This document shows positions 14,495-32,660 of a DNA stretch of 64,000 bases, piece by piece. How positions within the stretch are numbered: position 1 is the stretch's first letter; each line of letters begins with the position of its first letter. Made by a program: the position numbers and the translations under genes. The stretch lies in assembly GCF_000026545.1 (NCBI RefSeq), contig NC_011601.1. The stretch is one strand, 5' to 3'. The notes under the pieces are model-generated. The model was not told where the DNA came from. It did not search any database and was given only the letters and a program-made list of their open reading frames with translations. The DNA is from Escherichia coli O127:H6 str. E2348/69. Its GTDB lineage: Bacteria; Pseudomonadota; Gammaproteobacteria; Enterobacterales; Enterobacteriaceae.

Positions 14495-14809
14495 GCGTTG
14501 TTATGTTCCAGTAAGCAAAGCTGTTTCTGCGCCCTGTCAGCGCCCATAAAACAGAAGAGAAGGTAAGGTTAACGGGGTGAACGGTGTGGATTAAAGACGG
14601 GATAGCGATAACTAATAACCAAATCGACTAACCTGTTTTAGCAATAGTCTTTAACAACAAAATAGATTAACCAACCCAATGAAAAACAAATGAATATTGC
14701 CCATCAATAAGATAAATCAGCGATTTTGCGCAACAAAGTCGTTTTAGATAATGCGAAAAAACAGCCTTTCCGGTACTCTACGGCGGTTTTATCGTCATGT
14801 AGAGAAATT

Positions 14810-22990: not shown

Positions 22991-23012
22991 TAATGTGATC
23001 GTAATCACAGTG
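22991..23012. promoter_or_regulatory. CRP binding site (consensus TGTGA-N6-TCACA) in ygcW/yqcE divergent promoter region
   Basis: TGTGATCGTAATCACA at 22994..23009 matches both CRP half-sites perfectly; a further TGTGA half-site follows immediately. Confidence 0.55.
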
Positions 23013-23115
23013 TGATGTTCGTATTGTCAAATAATTTAAAAAAGCAGAAGCGTGATTACTCTCACACAACACCTCTGCTTTCCATGTTATTTCTTATTGC
23101 AATTACTAGAGACCT

Positions 23116-23186: not shown

Positions 23187-24464
23187 ATGCAACACAACTC
23201 ATATCGCCGTTGGATAACCCTCGCGATAATTAGTTTTAGCGGCGGCGTTAGTTTCGACCTGGCTTATTTACGTTATATTTATCAAATTCCCATGGCAAAA
23301 TTTATGGGATTCAGCAATACCGAGATAGGTTTAATAATGAGTACCTTTGGTATTGCGGCCATTATTTTCTATGCCCCTAGCGGCGTTATTGCCGATAAAT
23401 TTTCACATCGCAAAATGATTACTTCCGCGATGATCATTACCGGATTACTGGGTCTGTTAATGGCAACATATCCACCGCTGTGGGTAATGCTCTGTATTCA
23501 GGTCGCCTTTGCGATAACGACGATTTTAATGCTGTGGTCGGTGTCGATTAAAGCCGCATCGTTGCTGGGCGATCATAGCGAGCAAGGGAAAATTATGGGC
23601 TGGATGGAAGGGCTGCGCGGCGTCGGTGTAATGTCGCTGGCGGTGTTTACCATGTGGGTCTTTTCTCGCTTTGCACCGGATGACAGCGCCAGCCTGAAAA
23701 CGGTCATTATTATCTATAGTGTGGTTTACATTCTGCTGGGCATTTTGTGTTGGTTTTTTGTTAGCGATAACAACAATCTGCGCAGTGCCAATAACGAAGA
23801 AAAACAGTCATTCCAGCTTAGCGACATCCTGGCCGTTTTGCGCATCAGCACCACCTGGTATTGCAGCATGGTGATTTTTGGTGTCTTCACCATCTACGCC
23901 ATTCTGAGTTACTCCACCAACTATCTGACCGAAATGTACGGCATGTCGTTGGTGGCGGCGAGCTACATGGGGATTGTGATCAACAAAATCTTCCGCGCGC
24001 TGTGCGGCCCACTTGGCGGCATTATCACCACCTACAGTAAAGTGAAATCCCCTACCCGCGTGGTCCAAATCCTTTCCATCATCGGTTTGCTGGCGTTGAC
24101 AGCCCTGCTCGTCACGAACTCTAACCCGCAATCGGTCGCGATGGGGATTGGCCTGATTTTATTACTGGGATTCACCTGTTACGCCTCACGCGGGCTGTAC
24201 TGGGCCTGCCCTGGCGAAGCGAGAACACCGTCTTACATTATGGGCACCACGGTAGGTATTTGTTCGGTGATTGGATTTCTGCCGGATGTCTTCGTTTACC
24301 CGATTATCGGCTACTGGCAAGACACCCTGCCCGCTGCAGAAGCCTACCGCAACATGTGGCTAATGGGCATGGCGGCGCTTGGCATGGTGATCATCTTTAC
24401 CTTTTTGCTGTTCCAAAAAATTCGTACTGCTGATAGCGCCCCCGCAATGGCTAGCAGCAAGTAA
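23187..24464 (+). CDS. yqcE: MFS transporter
   Basis: 425-aa ORF, 12-TM-type hydrophobic profile. Confidence 0.82.
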   Translation: MQHNSYRRWITLAIISFSGGVSFDLAYLRYIYQIPMAKFMGFSNTEIGLIMSTFGIAAIIFYAPSGVIADKFSHRKMITSAMIITGLLGLLMATYPPLWVMLCIQVAFAITTILMLWSVSIKAASLLGDHSEQGKIMGWMEGLRGVGVMSLAVFTMWVFSRFAPDDSASLKTVIIIYSVVYILLGILCWFFVSDNNNLRSANNEEKQSFQLSDILAVLRISTTWYCSMVIFGVFTIYAILSYSTNYLTEMYGMSLVAASYMGIVINKIFRALCGPLGGIITTYSKVKSPTRVVQILSIIGLLALTALLVTNSNPQSVAMGIGLILLLGFTCYASRGLYWACPGEARTPSYIMGTTVGICSVIGFLPDVFVYPIIGYWQDTLPAAEAYRNMWLMGMAALGMVIIFTFLLFQKIRTADSAPAMASSK

Positions 24465-24490: not shown

Positions 24491-25969
24491 ATGTCGAAAA
24501 AATACATCATAGGGATTGATGGCGGAAGTCAGAGCACAAAAGTGGTGATGTACGATCTGGAAGGTAATGTGGTTTGCGAAGGCAAAGGCTTATTGCAGCC
24601 GATGCACACGCCAGATGCCGATACCGCAGAACATCCTGACGACGATTTATGGGCATCACTATGTTTTGCCAGTCACGATTTGATGAGCCAGTTTGCCGGA
24701 AATAAAGAAGATATTGTCGGCATTGGCCTGGGCTCAATCCGTTGCTGCCGTGCGTTATTGAAAGCCGATGGTACGCCAGCCGCGCCGTTGATTAGCTGGC
24801 AGGATGCACGCGTTACACGCCCTTACGAACACACTAATCCTGACGTGGCCTATGTCACCTCTTTTTCGGGTTATCTGACACATCGCTTAACCGGCGAGTT
24901 TAAAGACAATATCGCCAACTATTTTGGTCAGTGGCCGGTGGATTATAAGAGCTGGGCATGGAGCGAAAATGCCGCGGTAATGGAAAAGTTTAATATCCCC
25001 CGCCAGATGCTTTTTGACGTGCAAATGCCAGGCACTGTTCTTGGGCATATCACACCACAAGCTGCGCTGGCGACACATTTCCCGGCTGGGCTGCCGGTTG
25101 TTTGTACCACCAGTGATAAACCGGTAGAAGCTCTGGGAGCCGGGTTACTGGATGATGAAACGGCGGTAATTTCTCTTGGCACCTACATCGCGTTGATGAT
25201 GAACGGCAAAGCACTGCCGAAAGATCCGGTCGCGTACTGGCCGATTATGTCTTCTATTCCGCAAACATTGCTGTATGAAGGTTACGGTATTCGCAAAGGC
25301 ATGTGGACGGTGAGCTGGCTGCGCGACATGTTAGGCGAGTCGTTAATTCAGGATGCCAAAGCACAGGATCTTTCACCGGAAGATTTGCTCAACAAAAAAG
25401 CGTCTTGCGTGCCACCTGGTTGTAATGGGCTGATGACGGTGCTGGACTGGCTGACCAATCCGTGGGAACCGTACAAACGCGGAATTATGATCGGCTTTGA
25501 TTCCAGCATGGATTACGCATGGATATATCGTTCGATACTGGAAAGCGTGGCGCTGACGCTGAAGAACAATTACGACAATATGTGTAATGAAATGAATCAC
25601 TTTGCAAAGCATGTGATCATTACTGGCGGCGGTTCGAACAGCGATCTGTTTATGCAGATTTTTGCCGACGTGTTCAACCTTCCGGCACGCCGTAACGCCA
25701 TTAATGGTTGTGCAAGTCTGGGGGCAGCGATCAATACGGCGGTAGGTCTGGGGCTATACCCGGATTACGCAACGGCTGTCGACAAAATGGTTCGCGTGAA
25801 AGATATCTTTATGCCTGTTGAGAGCAACGCCAAACGCTACGACGCGATGAATAAAGGCATTTTCAAAGACCTAACCAAACACACTGATGTGATCCTGAAA
25901 AAATCGTATGAAGTGATGCATGGGGAATTGGGGAATGCGGATTCGATCCAGAGCTGGTCGAATGCGTAA
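24491..25969 (+). CDS. ygcE: FGGY-family carbohydrate kinase
   Basis: 492-aa ORF with N-terminal IGIDGGSQSTK motif typical of FGGY sugar kinases. Confidence 0.85.
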   Translation: MSKKYIIGIDGGSQSTKVVMYDLEGNVVCEGKGLLQPMHTPDADTAEHPDDDLWASLCFASHDLMSQFAGNKEDIVGIGLGSIRCCRALLKADGTPAAPLISWQDARVTRPYEHTNPDVAYVTSFSGYLTHRLTGEFKDNIANYFGQWPVDYKSWAWSENAAVMEKFNIPRQMLFDVQMPGTVLGHITPQAALATHFPAGLPVVCTTSDKPVEALGAGLLDDETAVISLGTYIALMMNGKALPKDPVAYWPIMSSIPQTLLYEGYGIRKGMWTVSWLRDMLGESLIQDAKAQDLSPEDLLNKKASCVPPGCNGLMTVLDWLTNPWEPYKRGIMIGFDSSMDYAWIYRSILESVALTLKNNYDNMCNEMNHFAKHVIITGGGSNSDLFMQIFADVFNLPARRNAINGCASLGAAINTAVGLGLYPDYATAVDKMVRVKDIFMPVESNAKRYDAMNKGIFKDLTKHTDVILKKSYEVMHGELGNADSIQSWSNA

Positions 25970-26086
25970 GTGAGATAAACAGTGCCGGGTAGATGATTAA
26001 TCCCGGCATATTCACGTTTCCACCACAAAATACCGGGTAACCACTGCTGAATATTGTTCTCTCCTGAGTAGCGTTTATGCTTTAAT

Positions 26087-26113
26087 TGCTAAACCGATTT
26101 AATTAGTTTAGCA
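26087..26113. promoter_or_regulatory. putative ScrR operator upstream of scrK
   Basis: GCTAAACCGATTTAATTAGTTTAGC: inverted half-sites GCTAAAC / GTTTAGC ~25 bp upstream of the scrK start; shares the CTAAACC half-site with the palindromes upstream of scrY. Confidence 0.45.
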
Positions 26114-26133
26114 ATTAGTATATTGGAGCCTTT

Positions 26134-27054
26134 ATGAGCGCAAGAGTATGGGTACTCGGTGATGCGGTTGTTGATTTATTACCCGAAAGCCAGGGGAGAC
26201 TACTACAGTGTCCTGGCGGGGCGCCTGCTAATGTTGCAGTCGGTATCGCAAGGCTGGGGGGGAAAAGTGCCTTTATTGGCAAAGTTGGCGATGATCCTTT
26301 CGGTCGCTTTATGTATCAGACACTGAGTACAGAAAATGTTGATACACGTTATATGTCTCTTGATCCTCAACAACGCACCTCAATTGTGGCTGTAGGACTT
26401 GATGAGCAAGGAGAAAGAAACTTTACCTTTATGGTACGCCCAAGTGCCGATCTTTTTTTACAACCTGATGACCTTCCTACATTTGGGCCGGGTGAATGGC
26501 TCCATCTTTGTTCCATTGCGCTCAGTGCAGAACCTTCCCGAAGTACCGCATTTCTGGCTATGGAGAAAATACGTCAGGCTGGCGGAAACATCAGTTTTGA
26601 TCCCAATATCCGCAGCGATCTCTGGCAGAGTGAAGCGCTATTAAGAAAATACCTTGATCGCGCGCTTTCGCTGGCGAATATCGCTAAATTGTCCGAAGAA
26701 GAGTTGCTATTCATCAGTGGCGAAAGCCAGGTTCAGCAAGGCGCATATTCATTAGTACAACGTTATTCGTTGACTTTATTGCTTATCACACAAGGAAAAA
26801 ATGGCGTACTTGTGTATTTTCAGGGGCAGTTTATCCACTATCCCGCCAAACCTGTTTCTGTCGTCGATACGACCGGGGCAGGAGATGCTTTTGTCGCTGG
26901 ATTACTTGCAGGTCTGGCTGATTCTGGAATACCAACAAATACCAGACAGCTTGAACGAATCATTGCACAAGCTCAGATTTGTGGTGCTCTGGCGACCACG
27001 GCTAAAGGCGCGATGACCGCCTTACCCCGACAACACGATCTCCCTTCACAATAG
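26134..27054 (+). CDS. scrK: fructokinase (ROK/PfkB ribokinase-family)
   Basis: 306-aa ORF with GGAPANVA and C-terminal DTTGAGDAF motifs; first gene of a scr-type cluster. Confidence 0.85.
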   Translation: MSARVWVLGDAVVDLLPESQGRLLQCPGGAPANVAVGIARLGGKSAFIGKVGDDPFGRFMYQTLSTENVDTRYMSLDPQQRTSIVAVGLDEQGERNFTFMVRPSADLFLQPDDLPTFGPGEWLHLCSIALSAEPSRSTAFLAMEKIRQAGGNISFDPNIRSDLWQSEALLRKYLDRALSLANIAKLSEEELLFISGESQVQQGAYSLVQRYSLTLLLITQGKNGVLVYFQGQFIHYPAKPVSVVDTTGAGDAFVAGLLAGLADSGIPTNTRQLERIIAQAQICGALATTAKGAMTALPRQHDLPSQ

Positions 27055-27105
27055 TGATCCTGCTGTTGTATCTGTAACCCGATTTGTCGTGCCTGTCACA
27101 TTTAC

Positions 27106-27177
27106 TAAATCGGTTTAGCGAAAATAATTGCTCTGGCTAAAAAGTCAGCTTTATTATCAACACCTAAACCGGTTTAG
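27106..27177. promoter_or_regulatory. two putative ScrR operators in scrY promoter region
   Basis: CTAAATCGGTTTAG (27106..27119, near-palindrome) and CTAAACCGGTTTAG (27164..27177, perfect 14-bp palindrome), 45-115 bp upstream of scrY. Confidence 0.55.
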
Positions 27178-27197
27178 CATTTTAGCAATTTTTATAA

Positions 27198-28739
<1,542 letters not shown>

Positions 28740-28799: not shown

Positions 28800-30170
28800 A
28801 TGGATTTCGATAAAATCGCCCAATCGTTGCTTCCTTTATTAGGTGGTAAGGAGAACATCGCCAGTGCAGCACATTGCGCCACTCGCCTACGGCTGGTACT
28901 GGTTGACGACACACTTGCCGATCAACATGCCATTGGCCAGATTGATGGAGTGAAAGGTTGTTTTCGTAATTCAGGGCAAATGCAAATCATCTTTGGCACC
29001 GGCGTGGTTAATAAAGTCTATGCTGCCTTTATTCAGGTTGCAGGTATTAGCGAATCCAGTAAAGCAGATACCGCTCGACTCGCCGCTCAAAAACTCAATC
29101 CTTTTCAGCGAATAGCACGGCTACTTTCTAATATTTTTGTCCCCATCATTCCAGCCATTGTTGCTTCTGGTTTATTAATGGGGCTCCTGGGAATGGTGAA
29201 AACATATGGCTGGGTGAATGCCGATAATGCGATTTATATCCTGCTGGATATGTGCAGTTCAGCCGCATTTATTATTCTCCCCATCCTTATTGGCTTTACT
29301 GCTGCTCGTGAATTTGGTGGAAATCCTTATCTTGGCGCGACATTAGGAGGGATTCTGACTCACCCGGCACTCACAAATGCCTGGGGCGTTGCTGCGGGAT
29401 TTCAGACAATGAACTTCTTCGGTTTTGAAATCGCCATGATTGGCTATCAGGGAACGGTTTTCCCCGTGCTTCTGGCAGTATGGTTTATGAGCATAGTGGA
29501 AAAACAGTTACGCAGGTTTATCCCTGATGCTCTGGATCTCATTCTGACGCCATTTCTGACTGTCGTCATTTCTGGCTTTATCGCTCTTTTGATTATTGGT
29601 CCGGCAGGACGAGCGTTAGGTGACGGTATCTCTTTCGTTCTCAGCACGCTGATTGCACACGCAGGCTGGTTAGCAGGGTTGTTATTCGGCGGGCTATATT
29701 CAGCGATTGTTATTACGGGTATTCATCATAGCTTCCACGCAATTGAAGCAGGACTTTTAGGTAACCCTGCAATCGGTGTTAATTTCCTGCTGCCTATTTG
29801 GGCAATGGCAAACGTTGCGCAAGGAGGTGCATGTCTGGCGGTATGGTTTAAAACCAAAGATACAAAAATTAAAGCAATCACCCTACCCTCGGCCTTTTCC
29901 GCAATGTTAGGGATTACTGAAGCCGCTATTTTTGGTATCAACCTTCGTTTTGTTAAACCTTTTATTGCGGCCTTAATTGGTGGCGCTGCCGGCGGTGCCT
30001 GGGTTGTCTCTGTTCACGTTTATATGACTGCCGTTGGTCTGACCGCAATACCCGGCATGGCAATCGTTCAGCCAACATCGTTGGTTAATTATATTATTGG
30101 AATGGTGATTGCTTTCGCTGTCGCTTTTAGCCTCTCTTTATTACTCAAATACAAAACGGACGAGGAGTAA
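28800..30170 (+). CDS. scrA: PTS sucrose-specific EIIBC component
   Basis: 456-aa ORF; N-terminal EIIB Cys motif (ASAAHCATRLR) followed by multi-TM EIIC domain. Confidence 0.88.
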   Translation: MDFDKIAQSLLPLLGGKENIASAAHCATRLRLVLVDDTLADQHAIGQIDGVKGCFRNSGQMQIIFGTGVVNKVYAAFIQVAGISESSKADTARLAAQKLNPFQRIARLLSNIFVPIIPAIVASGLLMGLLGMVKTYGWVNADNAIYILLDMCSSAAFIILPILIGFTAAREFGGNPYLGATLGGILTHPALTNAWGVAAGFQTMNFFGFEIAMIGYQGTVFPVLLAVWFMSIVEKQLRRFIPDALDLILTPFLTVVISGFIALLIIGPAGRALGDGISFVLSTLIAHAGWLAGLLFGGLYSAIVITGIHHSFHAIEAGLLGNPAIGVNFLLPIWAMANVAQGGACLAVWFKTKDTKIKAITLPSAFSAMLGITEAAIFGINLRFVKPFIAALIGGAAGGAWVVSVHVYMTAVGLTAIPGMAIVQPTSLVNYIIGMVIAFAVAFSLSLLLKYKTDEE

Positions 30171-31579
30171 TGTCGATGCCTTCACAAATGCCCGCGATTT
30201 TACAGGCAGTGATGAAAGGTCAGTCCAAAGCACTGGCAGATGCCCACTATCCTTGTTGGCATCTCGCTCCAGTCACCGGACTAATGAACGATCCAAATGG
30301 CTTTTGTTGGTCTGGAGGCCGCTATCATCTGTTTTATCAATGGAATCCACTGGCTTGTGATCATAAGTACAAATGTTGGGGGCACTGGAGTTCGACGGAT
30401 TTATTGCACTGGCAGCATGAACCATTAGCGCTAATGCCCGATAAAGAGTACGACCGTAATGGTTGTTACTCAGGAAGCGCGGTTAATAATCAGGGCGTTC
30501 TCACACTTTGCTATACCGGTAATGTTAAGTTTGATGATGGCAGCAGAACGGCATGGCAATGCCTGGCCACCGAAAATAACCAGGGCGGGTTTGATAAACT
30601 AGGCCCTGTCATACCGTTACCTGATGGTTACACCGGACATGTTCGTGATCCAAAAGTCTGGAAGCACAACAGCCAATGGTACATGGTGCTTGGCGCGCAA
30701 GATAAAGAGAAACGGGGGAAAGTGCTGCTGTATTCCTCTGTCGATCTCTATACCTGGTCTTTTCATGGAGAAATTGCTGGTAACGGTCTGAATGAAATAG
30801 ATAACGCAGGATACATGTGGGAATGTCCTGATCTTTTCGCCCTTGATGGTGAATACATTCTCCTCTGTTGCCCCCAGGGAATGGTGCGCGAACATGAGCG
30901 CTATCTGAATACTTATCCCTGCGCCTGGCTACATGGACAGTTTGATTACGAGACAGGCAAATTTACGCATGGCGCTTTCTCAGAGCTGGATGCGGGATTT
31001 GAATTCTATGCACCACAGACGATGGAAGCCCCGGACGGGCGACGATTGCTGGTCGGCTGGATGGGGGTTCCTGATGGCGAAGAGATGTTGCAGCCAACCA
31101 GAAAGCATCATTGGCAGCATCAAATGACCTGTTTTCGCGAACTCTCATTCCAGAAGGGAAAATTGTTTCAGATGCCAATCAGGGAACTCGCGCAACTGCG
31201 TGAAGCTGAACACTTCTGGCAAGGAAAAGCGGATCATGCGCCGCATGTCGAAATTGAACGCCTGGAAATGGACATCATTCCGTCGGGTGAGCTGTATCTG
31301 AATTTTGGCAATGCGCTGGCACTGCATCTTAATGACGATGGTATTCAACTACAGAGGAGAAGCCTTGCAGGGCAAGAGAAACTAACTCGTTACTGGCGAG
31401 GAAGCGTAACGTCACTGAAGATTCTCTGTGACAGTTCCAGCGTAGAGATATTCATCAATAATGGTGAAGGTGTAATGAGTAATCGTTATTTTCCCCATCA
31501 TCCAGCTTCGCTGATATTACAGGGTGAGTCTGACGTCACGTTACGCTACTGGTCGCTACGCGCCTGCATGGTAGAATGA
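30170..31579 (+). CDS. scrB: sucrose-6-phosphate hydrolase (GH32 invertase)
   Basis: 469-aa ORF with GH32 signature MNDPNG and downstream W(M)ECPD; start codon choice near 30170 uncertain. Confidence 0.88.
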
Positions 31580-31604: not shown

Positions 31605-32612
31605 GTGAGAAAAACCAAACGCGTTACTATTAAAGACATTGCTGAACTGGCGGGAGTGTCGAAAGCAACCGCCAGTCTGGTTCTCAATGGTCGTGGCAAA
31701 GAGTTACGTGTTGCGCAGGAAACGCGTGAGCGTGTGCTGAGTATTGCCCAACAGCAGCATTATCAGCCCAGCATTCATGCCCGCTCATTACGGGACAACC
31801 GCAGTCATACCATTGGTCTCGTCGTTCCTGAAATCACTAACTACGGATTTGCAGTATTTTCCCATGAACTGGAAACATTGTGTCGGGAAGCGGGCGTCCA
31901 GCTCCTCATATCCTGTACTGATGAAAATCCTTCACAGGAAACAATGGTGGTGAACAATATGATTGCCCGCCAGGTTGATGGGTTAATCGTCGCATCCAGT
32001 ATGCTGCATGATAATGACTATCAAAAACTTAGCGAGCAATTACCTGTTGTGTTGTTCGATCGCCACATGAACGGCAGTACATTGCCATTGGTCATTACTG
32101 ACTCTGTTTCTCCCACCGCCGCTCTGGTGGCAGATATTGCACGGAGTCACCCGGATGAATTCTATTTTCTGGGCGGACAACCCCGTTTGTCACCGACTCG
32201 CGATCGACTGGAAGGATTTACACAAGGCTTGCAGCAAGCCGGAGTAACGCTACAACCTGAATGGATTATTCACGGTAATTATCATCCGAGCTCAGGCTAT
32301 GAAATGTTTGCCGCGCTATGCGCTCGTTTAGGACGTCCCCCTAAAGCCTTATTCACTGCCGCTTGTGGATTACTGGAAGGCGTTCTGCGCTATATGAGCC
32401 AATATAATTTACTCGACAGTAAAATACACCTGGCGAGTTTTGATGATCATTACTTGTATGATTCACTTTCGGTAAGAATCGACACAATACAACAGGATAA
32501 TCGCCAACTTGCTTTTCACTGCTTTGAACTTATTTCGCAACTGATTGAAGGTGAAACGCCATCCCCATTACAGCGTTATCTTCCTGCCAGTCTACAAAAA
32601 CGCTACCGATAA
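31605..32612 (+). CDS. scrR: LacI-family transcriptional repressor of the sucrose regulon
   Basis: 335-aa ORF (GTG start) with N-terminal [26 protein letters not shown] and periplasmic-binding-protein-like effector domain. Confidence 0.85.
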
Positions 32613-32628
32613 TCCCGTCACTATCTTG

Positions 32629-32660
32629 CATCGCCCCTGTAAAACGGGGCGATTATTTTC
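32629..32660 (+). terminator. intrinsic terminator after scrR
   Basis: ATCGCCCC-TGTAAAAC-GGGGCGAT hairpin followed by TATTTTC. Confidence 0.6.

Follow-up and report, generated by a model that had tools for sequence, protein, structure and literature searches.

In this study, the regulatory DNA of the sucrose (scr) locus was investigated in a chromosomal stretch of 64,000 nucleotides of Escherichia coli O127:H6 str. E2348/69 (contig NC_011601.1), referred to here as the window. Three short palindromic sites were observed, one ahead of scrK and two ahead of scrY, and we hold with high confidence that they are the operators of ScrR, the fructose-responsive repressor of the LacI family whose gene closes this locus. 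Presented here are the three sites with their statistics, conservation and geometry, the gene content, and the match of the repressor's DNA-binding head to the Klebsiella protein; the binding of ScrR to the scrY operators, its inducers, the dependence on CRP and the control of two promoters are taken from the literature. The layout of the scr operators has been known since the early 1990s and a 2024 paper has shown the E. coli locus type, so that the finding is a correct rediscovery and, the arrangement having been described already, is of low interest. The three sites are the following:

26089-26102, no strand assigned: scrK operator, CTAAACCGATTTAA, with 2 mismatches to the perfect palindrome
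27105-27118, no strand assigned: upstream scrY operator (O2), CTAAATCGGTTTAG, at about -59 to -46 of the predicted scrY promoter, between a CRP-like site and the -35 element
27164-27177, no strand assigned: downstream scrY operator (O1), the perfect palindrome CTAAACCGGTTTAG, over the expected transcription start

A first-pass annotation, made from the letters of the window, had reported these palindromes as sharing one half-site, and the observation holds. The three differ from CTAAACCGGTTTAG by 0, 1 and 2 mismatches and all keep the central CG. The perfect 14-bp palindrome lies exactly at the coordinates that it had been given. The near-palindrome CTAAATCGGTTTAG is likewise present, but the range assigned to it, 27106-27119, reads TAAATCGGTTTAGC and was thus one base off. 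The upstream site at scrK is also there, but its range of 26087-26113 was one base too wide at each end; the site is GCTAAACCGATTTAA at 26088-26102, and a further GTTTAGC follows at 26106-26112. With the preceding G, the scrK operator reads GCTAAAC.., a full half-site. It stands 45 bp before the scrK ATG and, according to a repeat finder, is the exact reverse complement of O2 over 14 nt.

The match statistics of the palindrome are clear in the window. At two mismatches or fewer, 3 matches were counted against 0.17 expected, and none of 100 shuffled sequences gave three; these only matches are the three sites themselves, all of them intergenic and found either side of scrK. Relaxing the limit to three mismatches adds matches at 14628 and 45471, no more than chance would give. 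Again, a weight matrix made solely from the orthologous sites of other species gave 25.5-27.5 bits for the three sites, and the next best position in the 64 kb reached 10.5 bits. A possible fourth site, GTAACCCGATTTGT at 27074-27087, was pointed out by the repeat finder 31 bp before O2; it was rejected, since it has five mismatches, scores below 8 bits in the matrix scan and is not conserved among the other species.

During the comparison with other loci, one genome per species was scanned for relatives of ScrK, which disclosed 80 loci, and scrK was followed by scrY in 37 of them. These 37 genome loci include E. coli itself and a close metagenome-assembled genome (MAG), and extend over the genera Klebsiella, Raoultella, Enterobacter, Citrobacter, Kosakonia, Cedecea and Lelliottia. 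With three plasmid loci (Pantoea, Providencia and the E. coli IncF plasmid) the set comes to 40 loci, 39 of them besides the window, drawn from about 35 other species and the three plasmids. All 37 genome loci harbor the three sites in corresponding places (three mismatches or fewer), with a few scattered three-mismatch matches elsewhere, and the three plasmid loci display the same three-site pattern. The site before scrK lies 32-51 bp from the ATG in every one of the 40 loci, and the scrY pair lies about 116 and 57 bp ahead of the start, with a spacing of 58-60 bp. O1 is a perfect match in 35 of the 37 genome loci and carries one mismatch in the remaining two. For instance, in Klebsiella pneumoniae ATCC 13883 the scrK site is CTAAACCGGTTTAA at -42, and the scrY pair consists of TTAAACCGGTTTAG at -116 and CTAAACCGGTTTAG at -58. 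When the regulatory regions were aligned, conserved islands were seen amid drifting sequence: the operators, a -10-like block ahead of the scrK operator and, at scrY, a TG...TCACA element, TTG and TAnnAT.

The same motif was also found in Aeromonas and Pasteurella loci, with one site ahead of scrK and two ahead of the transporter gene. Outside the Enterobacterales, the spacing of the pair is 31-32 bp, or three helical turns (Aeromonas 1308/1339; Pasteurella canis 6579/6611), which differs from the 58-60 bp above, and therefore the promoter architecture differs there though the motif is the same. On a Rahnella aquatilis plasmid (2684-2933), scrK and scrYA are transcribed away from each other from a common intergenic region of 250 bp, in which only degenerate copies of the motif and a GTTTAGCTAAA element occur; the layout is rearranged, and this locus was excluded from the locus counts.

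Three further elements, which we infer from the letters and from their conservation, place the operators relative to transcription:

26078-26086, plus strand: predicted scrK promoter, an extended -10 element made of TG (26078-26079), c and TTTAAT (26081-26086), read from the sequence
27128-27157, plus strand: predicted scrY core promoter, with the -35 element TTGCTC (27128-27133), an 18-nt spacer and the -10 element TATTAT (27152-27157)
27085-27100, no strand assigned: CRP-like site, with TGTCG and TCACA halves around TGCCTG (core TGTCGTGCCTGTCACA), two mismatches, centre at 27092.5

At scrK, no good -35 element was found for the predicted promoter. A TGnTTaAAT block stands directly upstream of the scrK operator in most of the 37 loci, and the operator, starting three bases on from the -10 element, would cover about -4 to +10 of this promoter. 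At scrY, TTG and TAnnAT are conserved at the -35 and -10 columns of the same 37-locus comparison; 9 nt separate the end of O2 from the predicted -35 element, and 6 nt the predicted -10 element from the beginning of O1. The CRP-like site had been noticed earlier as a weak half-site; the half in question, CCTGTCACA, is present at 27092-27100, but it belongs to a full core of two half-sites and is not a lone half. Its right half with the flank, TCACATTT, corresponds to the consensus. In 40 of the 40 loci the TG...TCACA stands 4 nt before O2 and, measured from its centre, 59.5 bp before the -10 element, and the 6 nt between its halves vary freely; O1 shifts by 1-2 bp against the other elements of the scrY promoter. 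If the -10 element is placed at -12 to -7, the centre of the CRP-like site falls at about -71.5, which would be a standard class I position, with the start itself predicted. As a separate observation, a small terminator-like hairpin, CTGGCTAAAAAGTCAG then CTTTATTAT, lies at 27133-27148 within the spacer of the scrY promoter, and the IncF plasmid copy reads AGCCAG there, which perfects the stem.

The gene content agrees with a sucrose locus under its own repressor. The order is scrK-scrY-scrA-scrB-scrR, and the whole is inserted between ygcE and queE:

26134-27054, plus strand: scrK, fructokinase (NCBIfam NF006957 fructokinase, 511 bits against a cutoff of 450)
27222-28739, plus strand: scrY, sucrose porin, LamB-like or related (open reading frame and RefSeq annotation)
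28800-30170, plus strand: scrA, sucrose phosphotransferase system (PTS) component IIBC (TIGR01996, 650 bits, and RefSeq annotation)
30170-31579, plus strand: scrB, sucrose-6-phosphate hydrolase (TIGR01322, 548 bits, and RefSeq annotation)
31605-32612, plus strand: scrR, LacI-family repressor of the fructose/sucrose subfamily (TIGR02417, D-fructose-responsive transcription factor)

The curated NCBIfam cutoffs are exceeded by scrK, scrA, scrB and scrR, the porin scrY being the exception. ScrR scores 462.8 bits on TIGR02417, for which the cutoff is 389.55, and its gene starts 25 bp past the end of scrB. With the Klebsiella protein cluster P0032 it shares 85% identity, and its relatives are named 'sucrose operon repressor' in the sources. 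This cluster stands for K. variicola/pneumoniae and not for the exact strain that was studied. The helix-turn-helix and the hinge fall in the N-terminal 80 residues, of which 3-46 and 53-80 are identical to P0032; the differences there are confined to the extreme N-terminus and to three positions between 47 and 52. With this DNA-binding head in common, the same DNA specificity is expected, and the ScrR of the locus is the presumed binder of all three sites.

According to published work, ScrR represses two independent promoters, those of scrK and scrY(AB) (PMC4521459, citing Jahreis & Lengeler 1993). The -35 and -10 elements of scrY are flanked immediately upstream and downstream by two 14-bp inverted repeats, which mutational evidence supports as ScrR operators (PMC11251922, citing Cowan 1991 and Jahreis & Lengeler 1993), and a CRP site lies further upstream, the scrY promoter of pUR400 being under catabolite repression (PMC11251922). 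D-fructose or fructose-1-phosphate is reported to free ScrR from its operator in the pUR400 and Klebsiella systems (PMC11251922, citing Jahreis & Lengeler 1993). Working with this type of E. coli locus, Stephens et al. 2024 (PMC11251922) reported that a clone gives fast sucrose use and that removal of scrR speeds growth on sucrose; in their Figure 5 the scrY promoters of eight species are aligned, and the conserved pair of ScrR operators is marked together with the CRP site. The window contains exact matches to the primers with which 'the 6.6 kb scr locus' was cloned in that study (26001, 27016 and 32627-32647), and therefore the functional results of the study apply to this locus type. The first-pass annotation had described the layout as the one to be expected if ScrR controls two promoters, scrK and scrY, and the gene content, the layout in the 39 other loci and the published work all agree with it.

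Taken together, these elements suggest the following course of regulation. At scrK, a ScrR dimer on 26089-26102 would adjoin the downstream end of the extended -10 element, cover the start point and block RNA polymerase. At scrY, O1 on the start point and O2 just upstream of the -35 element would enclose the core promoter between them and keep scrYAB(R) silent. Activation dependent on cyclic AMP would come from the CRP site centred near -71.5 (27085-27100), and because O2 lies exactly between this site and the -35 element, ScrR bound there probably also keeps CRP from assisting the polymerase. Once sucrose has entered the cell and been cleaved, fructose or fructose-1-phosphate would bind ScrR and release it from the DNA, whereupon both promoters would fire.

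Several points weigh against this reading. A simple promoter scan called neither of the two predicted promoters, the hexamers being our own reading, and it called instead a different pair at 27101-27128 that overlaps O2; the scan requires a -35 element, which explains why the scrK promoter was missed, and conservation across species was therefore relied on instead. For the CRP-like site, matches to TGTGA-N6-TCACA with two mismatches number 28 in the window, where 26.7 are expected, so that its support comes from the fixed position across species and not from the match to the consensus. The CRP site was termed 'not well conserved' over the eight species of PMC11251922; in the 40 loci compared here, by contrast, the TG, the TCACA and the distance to the -10 element are invariant. 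The scrK operator of E. coli is the most degenerate of the set. Its position 9 is A (G9A), against G in 34 of 35 other species, and it may therefore be bound with lower affinity. The operator with this A is unchanged among four other E. coli-type copies compared, namely two chromosomes, the IncF plasmid copy and the close MAG, the last of which (CTAAATCGATTTAA) differs at position 6 instead. Moreover, the action of ScrR at the sites of this particular locus is deduced from sequence, with binding carried over from related systems, and what has been published on the exact operator sequences, the mapped starts and the scrK operator is known through later citing papers.

Beyond the three operators, extra half-sites were also observed:

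26106-26112, plus strand: extra right half-site GTTTAGC, 3 nt past the scrK operator
27172-27187, plus strand: tandem 8-bp copy of the right half of O1, GTTTAGCA at 27172-27179 and then TTTTAGCA at 27180-27187

A (G/A/T)TTTAGC stands 17-19 nt from the beginning of the scrK operator in 35 of the 40 loci, 3-5 nt past the operator, its spacer thus varying by 1-2 nt, and in E. coli the GTTTAGC region forms an 11-bp inverted repeat with 26084-26094. The tandem copy of the O1 half occurs in half of the loci (20/40), all of the E. coli/Enterobacter/Citrobacter group. E. coli PM06121 has three copies of the 8-bp unit, the copy number of which probably varies by slippage. These half-sites might be functional parts of the operators, either as a second, shifted docking place for ScrR or as an added contact that lengthens the roadblock into the first part of the transcribed region. 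As a separate matter, O2 might serve mainly to cut the contact between CRP and the polymerase, and less to block the polymerase itself. Both readings we put forward tentatively and consider rather doubtful. Neither the role of the extra half-sites nor that of O2 as a breaker of the CRP contact is mentioned in the parts of the literature covered.

Among the alternatives, the one that survives best is that O1 and O2 are a looping pair held by a ScrR tetramer, as in lac and gal, and not two independent roadblocks. The two operators always occur together around the promoter, at the nearly fixed distance of 58-60 bp. However, this distance corresponds to about 5.5-5.7 helical turns and not to a whole number, O1 moves relative to the promoter, and the Aeromonas and Pasteurella pairs are much closer. 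The protein points the same way. In LacI, a stretch at the C-terminus brings about tetramerization; ScrR (335 residues) aligns to positions 2-328 of the 358 of the LacI model and stops there, with the LacI core, leaving no counterpart of that stretch, and therefore no sign of a LacI-style tetramerization tail was seen. Looping is thus unlikely in our view.

It was also considered that Cra (FruR), the chromosomal paralogue of ScrR, binds the sites instead of ScrR or besides it, which would link the sucrose genes to the global fructose-phosphate signal. The two proteins belong to one NCBIfam subfamily and both respond to fructose phosphates, ScrR scores 237 bits on the Cra model, and by our count the ScrR palindrome and the related Cra box are alike at 10 of 14 positions. 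Additionally, the transcripts of scrA and scrB in Enterobacter aerogenes fell by 25-32% on deletion of cra, and TAAAACGTTTTA, which resembles a Cra box, was noted in the scrAB promoter (PMC4521459). This loss of expression, however, is not what losing a repressor at the sites would produce. The Cra half-site is TGAAAC, unlike the TAAACC found here, and none of the three sites comes within three mismatches of the Cra box CTGAAAC/GTTTCAG (CTGAAACGTTTCAG). The sites accompany scrR on plasmids and in many hosts, and removal of scrR alone alters the sucrose phenotype of the locus type (PMC11251922). Some cross-talk by Cra at the sites is possible, and yet a regulatory role for it in place of or beside ScrR seems very improbable.

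Just as improbable is that the repeats work as RNA, through a hairpin of the 5' untranslated region that affects the stability or translation of the mRNA, mainly by way of the scrK repeat AATTGCTAAAC...GTTTAGCAATT. If transcribed, 26084-26116 would fold back on itself in a stem of 11 bp, at -11.3 kcal/mol and with z = -2.6, and the right arm GTTTAGC is kept in 35 of the 40 loci at a distance whose small variation a hairpin loop would tolerate. The conserved -10-like element ends at 26086, however, which puts the predicted start inside the left arm, and with transcription starting there the scrK stem could not form. In Klebsiella and Raoultella, the bases outside GC...GC are non-complementary (A/A or T/T), which means that the half-site is conserved and not a longer helix. 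An RNA function cannot account for O2 either, which lies upstream of the promoter, and an Rfam search of 25900-27400 gave no match. The hairpin at scrK was accordingly rejected as the principal explanation on account of the predicted start in its left arm and the flanking pairs that do not co-vary. Finally, though the sites are short, the intergenic DNA is AT-rich and three-mismatch matches elsewhere occur at chance level, there is practically no prospect that the palindromes are fortuitous, as this is refuted by the 0.17 matches expected, the 100 shuffles without a triplet and the positions conserved in the 39 other loci.

The ScrR-controlled locus described here is most similar to the scr systems of pUR400 (Salmonella) and K. 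pneumoniae. It shares with them the gene order, the two 14-bp repeats around the scrY -35 and -10 elements with the downstream one over the start, the CRP site upstream, and a second ScrR-controlled promoter at scrK, the sites of the K. pneumoniae type strain being in the same positions. It differs in being the E. coli chromosomal copy between ygcE and queE; its proteins have diverged, ScrK being about 69% and ScrR about 85% identical to those of Klebsiella, its scrK operator CTAAACCGATTTAA carries G9A, and O1 and O2 are 59 bp apart here and 58 bp apart in Klebsiella. The locus of Stephens et al. 2024, from commensal B2 strains of E. coli, is of the same type, and the passages of that paper on operators, ScrR and CRP treat the scrY promoter only, with no scrK operator among them. 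The csc locus of E. coli (CscR, cscA/cscK) likewise has a LacI-family sucrose repressor, two repeats around the -35 and -10 elements and a CRP site (PMC11251922), but it has its own repressor, a 12-bp repeat, the non-PTS genes cscB, cscK and cscA, and another chromosomal site. The supplements of the LacI-family regulon paper give ScrR groups and no site sequences.

With respect to use, the results serve as annotation, since RefSeq marks none of the regulatory sites and labels scrK 'aminoimidazole riboside kinase', despite its passing the curated fructokinase model. The fixed geometry of CRP site, O2 and promoter, together with the extra half-sites, could guide the engineering of sucrose-inducible expression or of faster sucrose use by E. 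coli. As a discovery it carries little weight, the one loose end being the conserved GTTTAGC that follows the scrK operator as an extra half-site.

The locus is carried by 987 of 5426 complete E. coli genomes (about 18%), and IncF plasmids carry a copy that is 97.8% identical. Position 26069, which lies upstream of the predicted -10 element and outside the operator, is T in E2348/69 and C in nearly all other E. coli copies, and this is the sole difference between E2348/69 and most other strains in the scrK operator region; records at least 99% identical to the window across 26040-26133 number 3 of the 987. In most of the other species, a GC-rich hairpin (e.g. GGCCGCC..GGCGGCC) follows right past the scrK stop, and it is missing from the E. 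coli-type sequence at 27055-27084; its absence may make it easier here for transcription of scrK to run on into scrYAB. Stephens et al. speculated on such read-through for a deletion construct (PMC11251922). Further upstream in the window, the divergent ygcW / yqcE-ygcE intergenic region harbors a perfect CRP palindrome, TGTGATCGTAATCACA, at 22994-23009, and a CRP site with one mismatch at 23051-23066, 57 bp beyond it, both of them just upstream of the gene at 23187 for a transporter of the major facilitator superfamily.

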